From Octopus vulgaris (Eukaryota): a stretch of DNA of 64,000 nt. Below the pieces are notes generated by a model. It saw nothing but the letters and a program-made list of their open reading frames with translations. It was not told the DNA's origin and ran no database searches. The stretch covers positions 88,536,001 through 88,600,000 of the forward strand of contig OX597819.1 of NCBI GenBank assembly GCA_951406725.2. Direction: 5' to 3'. Of this stretch, positions 1,895 to 62,067 are shown piece after piece (positions within the stretch are counted from its first letter, which is position 1; the number at the start of each line of letters is the position of its first letter). A program made the position numbers and the translations under genes.

Positions 1895-1930
<36 letters not shown>

Positions 1931-2310
1931 TATATTATAAAATGAGATAGGGGTTGAAAATTCAACCCACCATGGGATAATATATATCCAATATACTGCT
2001 AGATAGGTACCCAACAAAAATAATACATAGATGTTAAAAATTGTCAAGCAATCAGTTCATCTATTGTATTAAATGGGTAAAGGTAATAATATTACCGTAA
2101 ATTAATACTACAAAATTAGAGAATGGAGAAACATACTTAAATCAGTAAAACATCAACTATCCAATGATACTCAATCCATACTTTAATACACCATTACATA
2201 TGAGTAAAGGCAATATATAAAATGAAATGAGATATACAGTAATAGTAAAAGTAAAAAGATAAAGAGATATAAGTAAAAAATTTCAAATATAATATGCAAA
2301 TAAATCAAAA

Positions 2311-2418
2311 CTGACAGCTGTTTCGGCAGTGAGGACAGTCATACCTCATTTAACCTATAAGCCATAAAGGCAGGTATAAATGAGGCATTAACAAGGATGC
2401 CCCACGGCCTCTTCAGAG
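2311..2418 (-). ncRNA. Hammerhead ribozyme (type I, long stem II, palindromic minimal stem III)
   Basis: Reverse complement of 3344-3451. Confidence 0.75.
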
Positions 2419-2758
2419 AATTAAATTAAATTTGTTATAATAGTGAAAAATATTATATAATTATATACATATAAATATAAAAATATAAAAATGTAAAATA
2501 TAAAAACTTATACATCATAATGCTACACTTATATAATATAATACACATTTGTACAAAAAGGAAGGTAAACAGAACAATATAAAACAAAATATATAACAGT
2601 GTATATATTAATATTAATAAGTACCGATATTATACATATTTGGCTAATAGTTTTTTTTATAAAAAAAAGGGCTAACACATATAAAGATGAAAAATAATAA
2701 TTAAATCCGTGGTACAGTTCATAAAATTCCAAAGCTATAAAAGTTAATAAAAATTACT

Positions 2759-2789
<31 letters not shown>

Positions 2790-2973
2790 TTAATAATAAT
2801 AAAAATAATAATAATAAAAAAATACTAAAAATAGATACAGTTAAGTTAGCACAAGTCCATCCTTTCAAGATCGAAATAACTATAGTTATTTCGATCTTGA
2901 AAGGATGGACTTGGTGCTAACTTAACTGTATCTATTTTTAGTATTTTTTTATTATTATTATTTTTATTATTAT

Positions 2974-3004
<31 letters not shown>

Positions 3005-3343
3005 AGTAATTTTTATTAACTTTTATAGCTTTGGAATTTTATGAACTGTACCACGGATTTAATTATTATTTTTCATCTCCATATGTGTTAGCCCTTTTTT
3101 TATAAAAAAAACTATTAGCCAAATATGTATAATATCGGTACTTATTAATATTAATATATACACTGTTATATATTTTGTTTTATATTGTTCTGTTTACCTT
3201 CCTTTTTGTACAAATGTGTATTATATTATATAAGTGTAGCATTATGATGTATAAGTTTTTATATTTTACATTTTTATATTTTTATATTTATATGTATATG
3301 ATTATATAATATTTTTCACTATTATAACAAATTTAATTTAATT

Positions 3344-3451
3344 CTCTGAAGAGGCCGTGGGGCATCCTTGTTAATGCCTCATTTATACCTGCCTTTATGG
3401 CTTATAGGTTAAATGAGGTATGACTGTCCTCACTGCCGAAACAGCTGTCAG
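3344..3451 (+). ncRNA. Hammerhead ribozyme (type I, long stem II, palindromic minimal stem III)
   Basis: CTGAAGA (3346-3352), stem II GGC...GCC with inner ATGCCTCATTTA/TAAATGAGGTAT, GAAAC-AGCT-GTC (cleavage predicted after 3449); stem I weak. Confidence 0.75.
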
Positions 3452-3747
3452 TTTTGATTTATTTGCATATTATATTTGAAATTTTTTACTTATATCTCTT
3501 TATCTTTTTACTTTTACTATTACTGTATATCTCATTTCATTTTATATATTGCCTTTACTCATATGTAATGGTGTATTAAAGTATGGATTGAGTATCATCG
3601 GATAGTTGATGTTTTACTGATTTAAGTATGTTTCTCCATTCTCTAATTTTGTAGTATATATATATATATATATTTATATATGTATATATGACATACGTAT
3701 GTATAAACTTGTGTGAGTGAGTGAGTGAGTGAATGAGAGAGAGAATG

Positions 3748-13705: not shown

Positions 13706-13988
13706 ATTCTATTGTGTCTGGAGAGAGTCATTTTCTTTTTGTACCTTATAACGTAACACACTCACCGGTGAAATTTCCACTTATTTCTTATTTTTATTTT
13801 CCTAAAATTTTCGTTGCATCTTGCAACATTTTCAATAGTCTTGACTCTCAAGACTATTGAAAAGGTTGCAAGACGCAACGAAAAAACTTTACGAAAATAA
13901 AAATAAGAAATAAGTGGAAATTTCACCGGTGAGTGTGTTACATTATAAGGCACAAAAAGAAAATGACTCTCCCCAGACACAACAGAAT
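13706..13988. repeat. Palindrome of about 283 bp (arms about 140 bp, 3-nt loop), probable Penelope-like fold-back remnant
   Basis: Centre TCTTGA-CTC-TCAAGA at 13839-13853; arms similar with scattered mismatches. Confidence 0.9.
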
Positions 13989-25060: not shown

Positions 25061-25521
25061 GGATCTTTTCGGTTTGAACGGCAGTTTTTTCTAGCGGTGT
25101 CATATGAAATTGCCACACATAATTATGACCCTAGTATCGATCTATTGCATTTCAATCTATTTTAGGGTTAGGGTTAGGGTTAGGGTTAGGGTTAGGGTTA
25201 GTCAGGGTTAGTTAGGGTTAGGGGTGGGGGAAGGGTATCTTTTTTTTCTTCACAAATGTAAATAAACTTAATCTGTTTCTTAAACGAGGGACATATTCAT
25301 ACGGCACAGAATGTTTTTTACCTCAAATACGTCAGTGATTGGTTGAAATTGCAGAAATTGAAGAAAAAAAAACAACAAATATCTTACAAACCATAGAATT
25401 TTCTCAATAAAGCCAAGAGAAAAAGATGTTTTATAAACACATTCTACCAGTATACGAAGTTTAAAATTTTTTAGTTACCTAGAAATTATGTTAAAAACTG
25501 CCGTTCAAACCGAAAAGATCC
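25061..25521. mobile_element. MITE with 8-bp TSD and internal (TTAGGG)n, Merlin-like
   Basis: TIR GGATCTTTTCGGTTTGAACGGCAGTTTTT at both ends; TSD CAAGTCTA (25053-25060, 25522-25529). Confidence 0.9.
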
Positions 25522-27962: not shown

Positions 27963-28234
27963 ATTTGCCTCACTAAGAATGATTCAAGAAACCATAAACG
28001 GGGAAACTTGAAGACCCAGTCATCTCATATATTTTATCCTTTCCTTGTTTCACTCATTGAATTGTGGTTATGCTGGAGTACTGCCTTGAAGGGCTTAGCC
28101 GAATCCTCCAAGGTGGTACCCTAGCATAATCGCAAATCAATGACAGAAATAAGAAAAAGATAAAATATATGAATTGATTGGGTCTTCAAGTTACCCTCTT
28201 TATGGCTTCTTGAATAATTCTTAGTGAGGCAAAT
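27963..28234. repeat. Diverged inverted duplication (about 130-bp arms) interrupting a SINE B 3' end
   Basis: ATTTGCCTCACTAAGAAT...CTTGAAGACCCA versus TGGGTCTTCAAG...ATTCTTAGTGAGGCAAAT. Confidence 0.85.
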
Positions 28235-31079: not shown

Positions 31080-32381
31080 CAATGTAGGGCAGAAAGGACG
31101 GACGTTTTTGAAAAATTCACAAAAGCATTAATTTTAGCTGCAAACAAATTTTATTGACATGAGTGTGTTCATATTGAATTAACATTTGTCAAATTCAAGT
31201 GTGGAAAGCAACATCCATCATGTGGTGTCCGTTTTCATTGATGCAGTTCTGAAGGCTTTCTTGGAAGTTGGCCTCTGCCCTCTCCAGCATTGCTCTGCCG
31301 ATTCGGGCGACTTCCGCGCGAATAGCTTCCTTCAAATCGTCCAATGTACGGGACTTATGCACATACACACGTGCCTTGATGTTTCTCCACAAGAAATAAT
31401 TACACGTGGAGAAATCGGGGGACCGAAGGGCCCAAGGAATGTCAGCAAACCTGTAGATGAGGCAGTGACCGAGGAGAGGACAAAGAACGTCCAATGATGC
31501 TCTGGCTGTGTGAGCCATTGCCCCATTCTGCTGAAACCACACACTTCGAATATGCATACGTTTTCGTCGTAATTCAGACACAAAGAAGTTGTTTATCATC
31601 TCAATGTAACACTCAGAGTTCACAGTAACAACATTTCCATTATTGTCTTCAAAAAAGTAAAGACCAATGACAGTAGCTTTTCTAACAGCACACCAGACCG
31701 TCACTTTTGGGTTGTGAAGTGGTCTTTCGCGCAGTTCTCTCGGATTTTCAAGAGCCCAATAACGACGGTTCTGTTGATTTACCATGCCATTAAGATGAAA
31801 ATGAGCTTAATCACTCATTAACAAAATGAGGTTGGCATTTGCCTCAAAAATTGCTTCCATCTGACATGCGAAGTTAAGCCACTGTGCATAGGCCCATGGT
31901 TTCAACTGTTACCAAATTACCATTTTGTACCGACGAAAATGCAGGTCTTCATGCAAAATACGCCTTACCGATCGATTACCGATGCCAATTTCAGTGGAAT
32001 GTCTCCGAGCAGAGCGATTCGGATTCCGTATCAAAGCTTGTCTGATGCGTTCCACATTTTTCGGGGTCCGTACAGTTCGTAGCGCCCCGACCAGTCTCCT
32101 ATTCATTAGTGTATTTCATGTACATTGTACATTGTATTGCAGCCTGGATGTTGAAGTGACGCCGAAACTCACGCTTAACTGTTGTAACACACTCGTTATT
32201 CTTCACATAACTGTTGTAGGCAAACACGCAATGCTCTATCGTCCACAGCGCCATAGCTTCACCTGAAAAGAAAAAAGAAATGCTATGACACCCCGGACCG
32301 AATGGTACCTGTCGAACATATGTCCCATCCCCTGGGGATGAGTACTAGCCATTTCAAAAACGTCCGTTCTCTCTGCCCCAC

Positions 32382-61338: not shown

Positions 61339-62067
61339 GGATCTTTTCCTTTTGAACGGCAGTTTTCAACACAATTTCTAGTTAACTAAACACTTTTAAA
61401 CTTCGTATACTCGTAGAATGTGTCAAAATAAAACATTCTTTCTCTTGGCTTTGTTGAGAAAATTGTAATTTGTAAGTTTAACGTAGTTTAATTTTTCGAA
61501 TTTTAACCAATCAATAACCTCTATTGAGCTAAAATCATTTGCTGCGTCTAAAACTGAGACAACATCCTGTCACTAACCCTAACCCTAAATTTTAGCCTTT
61601 CGTGTTTTTTTTTTCTTAGTTGTTAAATTATTTTATTTGTTACGTGTGTGTCTAAAATTATTCGTTTTGTTTTTGTTTTGAGATACACGTGTATTGTTTA
61701 AACTATTTTCCATTGCTTAAGAAAAAAAAACGAAAGGCTAAAACGAAAGCAATGGAAAATAATTTAAACAATTAACAAACAAAATAATTCTATAAGTTTA
61801 TACACACGCTTTCCGTACGTAAACATAACAGAGACAGGATGTTGTCTCAGTTTTAGACGCAGCAAATGATTTTAGCTCAATAGAGGCTATTGATTGGTTA
61901 AAATTCGAAAAATTAAACTACGTTAAACTTACAAATTACAATTTTCTCAACAAAGCCAAGAGAACAAAAATGTTTTATTTTGACACATTCTACCAGTATA
62001 CGAAGTTTAAAAGTGTTTAGTTAACTAGAAATTGTGTTGAAAACTGCCGTTCAAAAGGAAAAGATCC
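61339..62067. mobile_element. Fold-back MITE with about 235-bp TIRs and 8-bp TSD, related to 25061-25521
   Basis: TIR GGATCTTTTCCTTTTGAACGGCAGTTTT; TSD ATAAAGTC (61331-61338, 62068-62075); CTAACCCTAACCCTAA inside. Confidence 0.92.

Follow-up and report, generated by a model that had tools for sequence, protein, structure and literature searches.

At positions 1899-3689 of the window, by which we mean the whole 64,000-nt stretch of the Octopus vulgaris genome analyzed here, lies a head-to-head pair of 5'-truncated Penelope-like element (PLE) copies in (TA)n. Positions along an arm are given as q, the position in a reference unit taken from locus L022, where q1 is window position 2883, q778 is the end of the right arm, and q571 is the first base past the predicted hammerhead cut. 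The features of the locus are as follows.

1899-1934, no strand: (TA)n target, left flank (repeat scan).
1935-2104, minus strand: 170-nt tail, nucleotides 1-170 of the unit, found upstream of the ORF in full-length copies (100% identity); its outer end is putative priming site 1 (q948).
2105-2883, minus strand: left arm, the PLE 3' end (pLTR), q0-q778, with four private transitions (arm alignment).
2313-2416, minus strand: left-arm type I hammerhead core, predicted cut between 2313 and 2312 (core motif).
2882-2883, no strand: head-to-head junction with a shared AT at q0, where arms end repeatedly (14 loci have the identical 26-nt junction); candidate RNA 5' end.
2882-3657, plus strand: right arm, the same pLTR segment without the tail, its outer end being the unit's 3' end (arm alignment); this end (q778) is putative priming site 2.
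3346-3449, plus strand: right-arm type I hammerhead core, predicted cut between 3449 and 3450 (core motif).
3658-3689, no strand: (TA)n target, right flank (repeat scan).

The palindrome given in a preliminary description of this DNA is present in the assembly: 770 of 779 columns are identical when the reverse complement of 2105-2882 is aligned to 2883-3657. The arms differ by indels of 1, 3 and 1 nt and by four substitutions (left-arm positions 2684, 2683, 2462 and 2163), which are exactly the three contexts named earlier (CCAATG/CCGATG, TATAAAG/TATGGAG and AATTAT/AATCAT). A spacer is indeed lacking, although strictly a 2-bp self-complementary AT at 2882-2883 is common to both arms. The left arm does continue beyond the right, but by 170 bp (1935-2104) and not by the roughly 180 bp first given, and this extra sequence matches nucleotides 1-170 of the element unit with 100% identity. 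TA repeats adjoin the palindrome on both sides (1899-1939 and 3655-3689), as described. An Rfam match to mir-3912 at the palindrome centre (57 bits against a gathering score of 95) was rejected, being simply the hairpin itself.

The independent data are short-read contigs. Part of the stretch was matched in 21 of 24 listed sequencing runs, and contigs matching the last 2.2 kb of L022 place the family in four runs from four studies. These four-run contigs contain neither a joint at q0 nor a locus-specific span, and we would expect perfect palindromes to collapse in such data. That no contig spans both arms plus flanks would suit an artefact of assembly or of a fold-back read, as would the four substitutions on one arm only, a condition seen in a few other loci and possibly due to consensus error. 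Such an artefact is nevertheless very improbable, given that the outer ends fall on the two fixed ends of the family, that the flanks differ, that the same junction recurs across subfamilies, and that the family itself is found in all four of these runs. The palindrome is real in the assembly and ordinary for its family, being one of hundreds of young insertions of this head-to-head kind.

Several other repeats occur in the window. An inverted repeat at 61339-62067, with arms of ~240 bp and a diverged middle (81.5% overall), is MITE-like and does not match the PLE unit; 25316-25521 is a partial relative of it. Shorter palindromic elements at 13706-13988 and 27963-28234 (92% and 82% self-complementary) are unrelated to the PLE unit and are probably MITEs. 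A 203-aa open frame at 31195-31806 (minus strand) bears what we take to be a resemblance to a Tc1/mariner-type transposase fragment, and TTAGGG is repeated 11 times at 25162-25223 as an interstitial telomere-like repeat.

The locus had been read as a young Penelope-like insertion in (TA)n with homologues across the genome, and matching copies support this. In the genome searched (2.8 Gb, 227 contigs), an exact search for the 32-mer at the q778 end, with TA after it, gives 388 matches and so at least 388 copies; of two exact patterns for the tail end, one gives 299 and the other 214 matches, and the tail running on towards the ORF gives 39. Full-length copies (L021, L022 and L121) are partial tandems, pLTR-ORF-pLTR, with a unit of 5600 nt. 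The ORFs of L021 and L022 are frameshifted, each at a different place, and L082:619-3456 contains an uninterrupted 946-aa ORF with a YRDD motif. C-terminal to the reverse transcriptase (RT) of this ORF is a GIY-YIG recognized by motif (VVY...VYIG, with conserved R, H, E and N aligned in relatives); a Pfam profile search of the ORF returned no family and no GIY-YIG profile match, and a sequence search of solved structures returned no match. The predicted model of the protein has a pLDDT of 78, and the three best matches to its fold are telomerases (E about 1e-9). Two N-rich, low-confidence inserts (residues 505-625 and 713-803) are missing from most relatives.

Of the Hydra-clade motifs, the protein carries RWK, DKT, the CxCX5C linker, and CxxC and CxH around E and N, and CCHH is absent. 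The (TA)n target and canonical hammerhead of that clade are also found, and partner-arm ends, which were not selected for TA, adjoin TA repeats in nearly all loci displayed. The 5600-nt unit departs from the clade's tendency, not a strict one, towards short units (<3 kb). The protein search gave 76 matches with no named Hydra proteins among them, the best named match being from Argonauta hians. The layout of partial-tandem pLTRs, inverted 5'-truncated copies and a one-sided tail is that of EN+ PLEs. Judged by its sequence, the element is an EN+ PLE with Hydra-clade motifs, the clade call being one made from motifs. The arms are the 3' end of a unit that encodes RT, and identification as a MITE or fold-back DNA transposon was rejected on that ground.

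The same inverted layout is seen in L192 for an older relative of about 70-74% identity. Several insertions have copies from other, more distant PLE families, or from older subfamilies, as neighbours at a distance of a few kb at most (L026:8307-9878, L027:7617-9998, L029:8333-9022 and L035:3-2015). L040:2246-10000 is a palindrome at least 7.7 kb long (self-complementarity 99.1%) whose arms both contain the 3' half of the ORF. On contigs C1 and C2, L060 and L062 agree in junction and flanking repeats; they are one insertion, present twice by segmental duplication or as an assembly duplicate. The family may already be catalogued in an O. vulgaris repeat annotation, which counts 31 recently active Penelope-like families and, in the passages considered, gives no account of their structure (PMC13282606).

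Each arm was said to contain a hammerhead ribozyme, and each does: the core CUGAAGA...GAAA...GUC is on the plus strand at 3346-3449 and on the minus strand at 2416-2313. In the right arm, CUGAAGA (3346-3352), an 85-nt stem II and GAAA (3438-3441) are accompanied by a short palindromic stem III. Both cores have the type I elements (C3UGANGA9, G12AAA, UH17, G10.1-C11.1 and three stems). The fold of the region has a z of -4.09, with none of 200 shuffles equally stable, and imposing the catalytic topology gives -37.8 kcal/mol, compared with -43.0 kcal/mol unconstrained. Rfam returned no match at the gathering score in the window, and no hammerhead family at E up to 10. The core is invariant or nearly so in 100-115 arms of the family, and double-sided changes occur in 3 of 33 predicted pairs among 12 copies, a weak signal as the sequences are related. 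Genome matches to the region number 1271 candidates, and all 40 that were scored are 100% identical. From the canonical core we take the cut to lie at q570/571, as is established for hammerheads; the stretch q571-589 is also the 3' strand of stem I.

Insertions were sampled as two sets totalling 180 loci. Set 1 was the first 100 of the 388 matches to the q778 pattern (contigs C1 to part of C4) and comprised 54 inverted insertions, 45 solo copies and one unmapped locus. Its end counts drop 14 loci: L062 (duplicate of L060), L128 (unmapped), L061 (N gap), L068 (poly-T), those ending in or at a TAT tract (L059, L079, L084, L103, L066, L034 and L026), and the rearranged L111, L023 and L101. Set 2 was 80 tail-anchored loci (38 of the 299 and 42 of the 214 occurrences) from other regions, fetched after predictions had been written down; 50 were inverted and 30 solo, at least four of the solos having a short partner that was missed. 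Four arm ends were omitted from set 2 (the tail arms of L187 and L217 and the partners of L216 and L174), and four tail arms were treated as running off the fetched stretch. Pooled analyses used 101 inverted pairs, without L062, L101 and L026. Both sets were chosen by exact patterns and therefore favour young copies, and in either set the anchored end is fixed by construction.

The outer ends fall at two places. Partners of q778 ends finish at q940-956 in 54 of 54 cases in set 1, and partners of tail ends finish at q761-780 in 47 of 48 scorable cases in set 2, the other finishing at q639. No 778/778 or tail/tail pair occurs in 102 scorable insertions. Long direct copies end either at q778 (L021, L022 and L121) or at the tail (L203, L205, L211 and L212). 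Just inside the tail end is a short hairpin (window 1948-1969, about q915-935) at which several tail arms stop, partly a search edge; it resembles the stem-loop at the start site of the anole Poseidon element. We propose that the inverted insertions arise by twin target-primed reverse transcription, in which one RNA is copied from two fixed sites and the two cDNAs are joined end to end, and we give this reading a probability of about 0.55.

The preliminary description instead had the nascent cDNA fold back and copy itself. In that case the tail arm is made first, the second arm is nested within it, and the junction carries microhomology. This locus cannot decide the matter because its two arms are symmetric. 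In 50 of the 101 pairs it is the tail-less arm that extends deeper, by over 20 nt; in 25 the tail arm does so, and in 26 the two inner ends lie within 20 nt of each other. In 8 of 49 pairs (set 1) and 20 of 47 (set 2) the arms have no overlap at all, the tail arm lying wholly inside the tail. Junctions show overlaps in 39 pairs, are blunt in 29, and have insertions of 1-10 nt in 22 and longer ones in 11. Microhomology of at least 2 nt is found at 7 of 25 junctions that are compatible with fold-back and at 18 of 50 that are not, so there is no excess where it is expected. On these three counts, simple fold-back of the nascent cDNA is not supported as the mechanism of the family.

Comparison of the arms bears on whether they share an origin. 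The two arms of one locus are 0.31% apart, against a median of 2.2% between loci (46 loci). The nearest other locus is equally close (0.33%), and the likeness of the arms therefore shows a common subfamily and not a common molecule. Subfamily markers are concordant between arms in 2974 cases and discordant in 15. Locus-private variants are common to both arms in 23 cases, 10 of them T>C and including one A>G at this locus, and are on one arm only in 36. The shared ones are equally frequent in loci of either geometry (8 in 9.0 kb incompatible with fold-back, 15 in 18.7 kb compatible). Independent reverse transcriptions would not share RT errors, and under twin priming these 23 variants therefore need rare source alleles, RNA-level changes or arm-to-arm conversion. 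They may reflect rare source alleles, RNA-level change, copying of one cDNA or later conversion, all of which fit and are indistinguishable here.

Fold-back can be retained if trimming is added. [quoted passage not shown] The near-identity of the arms, the shared private variants with their T>C excess, and the 26 pairs with inner ends within 20 nt all agree with this. Central deletion also stabilises palindromes. Self-priming on an antisense template has been proposed for PLE palindromes (PMC3846280), and resolution of an intermediate by the endonuclease has been proposed as the source of the tail (PMC8557442). We nonetheless regard the scheme as unlikely. At least half of the pairs (50 of 101) would need a second event, and the deletions would have to be one-sided because ten pairs keep one arm at q0 while the other is shorter. 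The even distribution of shared private variants over the two geometries and the ordinary level of microhomology at compatible junctions also stand against it. A zero-length loop would, moreover, be hard to prime as a hairpin and would fit the annealing of two cDNA ends better.

The inner ends of a pair are correlated. They lie no more than 60 nt apart in 23 of 49 pairs in set 1 (4.9 expected) and in 9 of 47 in set 2 (3.2 expected). Away from the hot spots described below, close inner ends number 11 against 1.6 expected in set 1 (0 of 20000 permutations) and 5 against 1.6 in set 2 (p 0.012).

The first hot spot is q0. In set 1, 20 of the 63 arms reaching it stop at q-1 to 32, compared with 0 of 43 just upstream. 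A sharp edge at q0 had been predicted in advance for set 2, and there the test failed (8/42 vs 8/34 just upstream, p 0.78); the edge is therefore less sharp than set 1 implied. The cluster near q0 itself holds, the pooled counts over both sets being 28/105 vs 8/77. When one arm stops at q0, its partner never runs more than 25 nt beyond (0 of 18, 5.5 expected, 101 pairs). Of the ten pairs with one arm at q0 and the other shorter, several differ by 700-880 nt. The exact 26-nt (0,0) junction occurs at 14 loci, which belong to different subfamilies among those placed on the tree. Repeated copying of a single master palindrome was rejected because the junction spans different subfamilies and most junctions differ. 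The sequence at q0 is TCATAGT, presumably initiator-like, with two CCAAT upstream. RNA-type contigs cover q0 on both sides with no visible edge; contigs cannot show starts. In Drosophila virilis Penelope the start site is inside the pLTR (PMC2377424).

The second hot spot, q571-604, lies just 3' of the predicted hammerhead cut. In set 1 this window, whose width was picked after seeing the data, holds 20 of 106 ends, compared with 4/86 upstream and 3/109 downstream. The pre-stated replication in set 2 gave 12/76 vs 1/64 upstream (p 0.003) and 4/80 downstream (p 0.024), with borderline results for single arm classes (p 0.04-0.06 vs upstream). Pooled counts are 32/182 vs 5/150 upstream, and restricting the comparison to a single arm of each locus gives a median p of 0.002. 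The mode of these ends is q576-580, not q571. A+T content was rejected as the cause of the cluster (Spearman -0.11, p 0.66). Where one arm ends in the window, the partner runs well past the site in 4 of 18 pairs, compared with 14.8 expected under independence; if each insertion comes from one cut RNA, these four therefore need a multimeric template or a second RNA.

Two separate RNAs from one source locus, copied from two nicks, would be a third way to such pairs, with ends clustering where the RT stalls at structure or protein. The four partners that pass the ribozyme site favour it, as do the overlap of the window with the 3' strand of stem I and the many ends within the tail hairpins (30 of 127 at q855-936, partly an edge effect of the search pattern). 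Against it are the lack of 778/778 and tail/tail pairs, the correlation of inner ends away from hot spots, and the few ends at the 3' base of the strongest hairpin, stem II (3/150 at q559-570 vs 13/163 at q571-582, p 0.014). We consider this account improbable as a whole. As the cause of the q571-604 pile-up in particular, hammerhead cleavage is the probable one and stalling of RT a less likely one. The copy stop sites suggest that the element's hammerhead may cut its template RNA in the cell.

Under twin priming, the steps would be as follows. Transcription would start at q0 in the 5' pLTR, and the hammerheads would cut some of the RNAs into unit-length RNAs beginning at q571; a pLTR-ORF-pLTR transcript with two hammerheads would permit a dimeric fold. 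The element's protein would nick both strands of the (TA)n target and extend each of them, as in vitro in another PLE; the two resulting cDNAs would start on a single RNA from fixed positions separated by 170 nt, with primers at q940-956 and q761-780. Both cDNAs tend to stop near the same place, mostly q0 or q571-604, which we read as the RNA 5' end, and their 3' ends would be joined by blunt or microhomology end joining. Multimeric or circular templates could yield the copies of 1.2-1.35 units, e.g. L022, L121 and L021. At this locus both cDNAs would have reached q0 and ended in a self-complementary AT-3', and there would therefore be no spacer and a single tailed arm. More tentatively, twin priming could be the normal route of insertion, and the genome would then record two RNA 5' ends, the q0 start and the hammerhead cut.

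Inverted PLE insertions and PLE hammerheads are already known, and the new value of this work is the family-wide end map. Craig et al. (2021, PMC8557442) describe inverted 5'-truncated copies and a one-sided tail as features of PLEs at large. Hydra-clade PLEs, including Hydra-1_Obim, share with the octopus element the RT with C-terminal GIY-YIG, the motif set, the hammerhead and the (TA)n target (PMC8557442). At 5.6 kb and 946 aa, with two N-rich inserts, the octopus element is larger than the relatives found, which are generally <3 kb and about 700 aa; its tail is 170 nt rather than 30-40 nt, and its stem II is long at 85 nt. Hydra-1_Obim is listed at 2507 bp with 'no pLTR' (PMC8557442).

The anole Poseidon protein (PAc) nicks and extends both target strands, and two start sites bound its tail (PMC11167929). 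The Anolis carolinensis Poseidon (Frangieh et al. 2024) is thus like the octopus element in having two RT starts that bound the tail and an AT-rich target. It belongs to another clade, and its starts are a few tens of nt apart inside the ORF, whereas those of the octopus element are 170 nt apart and upstream of the ORF. Mutating the hammerhead left insertion in vitro unaffected, and reads ending at the cut site were absent; the parts of the study considered give hammerhead cleavage no role and leave inverted insertions unexplained (PMC11167929).

LINE-1 twin priming resembles our proposal in that the second strand primes and 5'-truncated ends are joined head to head with microhomology (PMC2837659; 10.1101/2024.12.14.628481). 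It is a variant outcome in LINE-1, whereas at least half of the octopus insertions are inverted, with fixed start sites and usually overlapping arms. The two pieces from LINE-1 twin priming normally do not overlap. The Adineta vaga Penelope (Arkhipova et al. 2013, PMC3846280) shares the inverted pLTRs, palindromic junctions, one-arm tail and N-rich ORF inserts. That case comprises a few copies and was read as self-priming on an antisense template; the octopus family offers 101 pairs, half of which misfit simple self-priming.

In the hammerhead model for PLEs (PMC4209133), the pLTR likewise carries a type I ribozyme whose stem III is short and palindromic. Such ribozymes need a dimeric fold, and release of a unit-length or circular template has been proposed (PMC4209133). 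In vivo evidence for cleavage by PLE hammerheads is stated there, in the portion considered, to be none (Cervera and de la Pena 2014, PMC4209133), whereas genomic arm ends of the octopus element pile up just 3' of the predicted cut. Neither twin priming in PLEs, nor genomic ends at a hammerhead cut, nor a family-wide end map of PLE insertions came up in the mostly open-access literature searched, which did not extend to Repbase and for which the supplements covered were those of PMC8557442.

Tandem and inverted insertion of PLEs and the role of their hammerheads have been named as open questions (PMC8557442, PMC11167929). If our reading is true, one mechanism covers inverted pLTRs, the one-sided tail and tandems of over unit length, and the ends reported here would be genomic evidence that PLE hammerheads cleave in vivo and that the cut RNA is a template. 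As the family is young and abundant and has an intact ORF, base-level predictions follow: RT should start at q778 and about q948, transcription should start at q0, and the ribozyme should cut at q570/571. The general rule that long perfect palindromes rarely persist, invoked in the preliminary description, does not describe this family, in which 30 of 101 inverted insertions are near-perfect with arms of at least 150 bp. Hyper-editing and dsRNA potential are reported to be exceptionally high in Octopus bimaculoides (PMC5625713), and in transgenic flies siRNAs match inverted Penelope regions (PMC3681739). In O. vulgaris, the element would be a steady source of long near-perfect palindromes, which are candidate dsRNA substrates.
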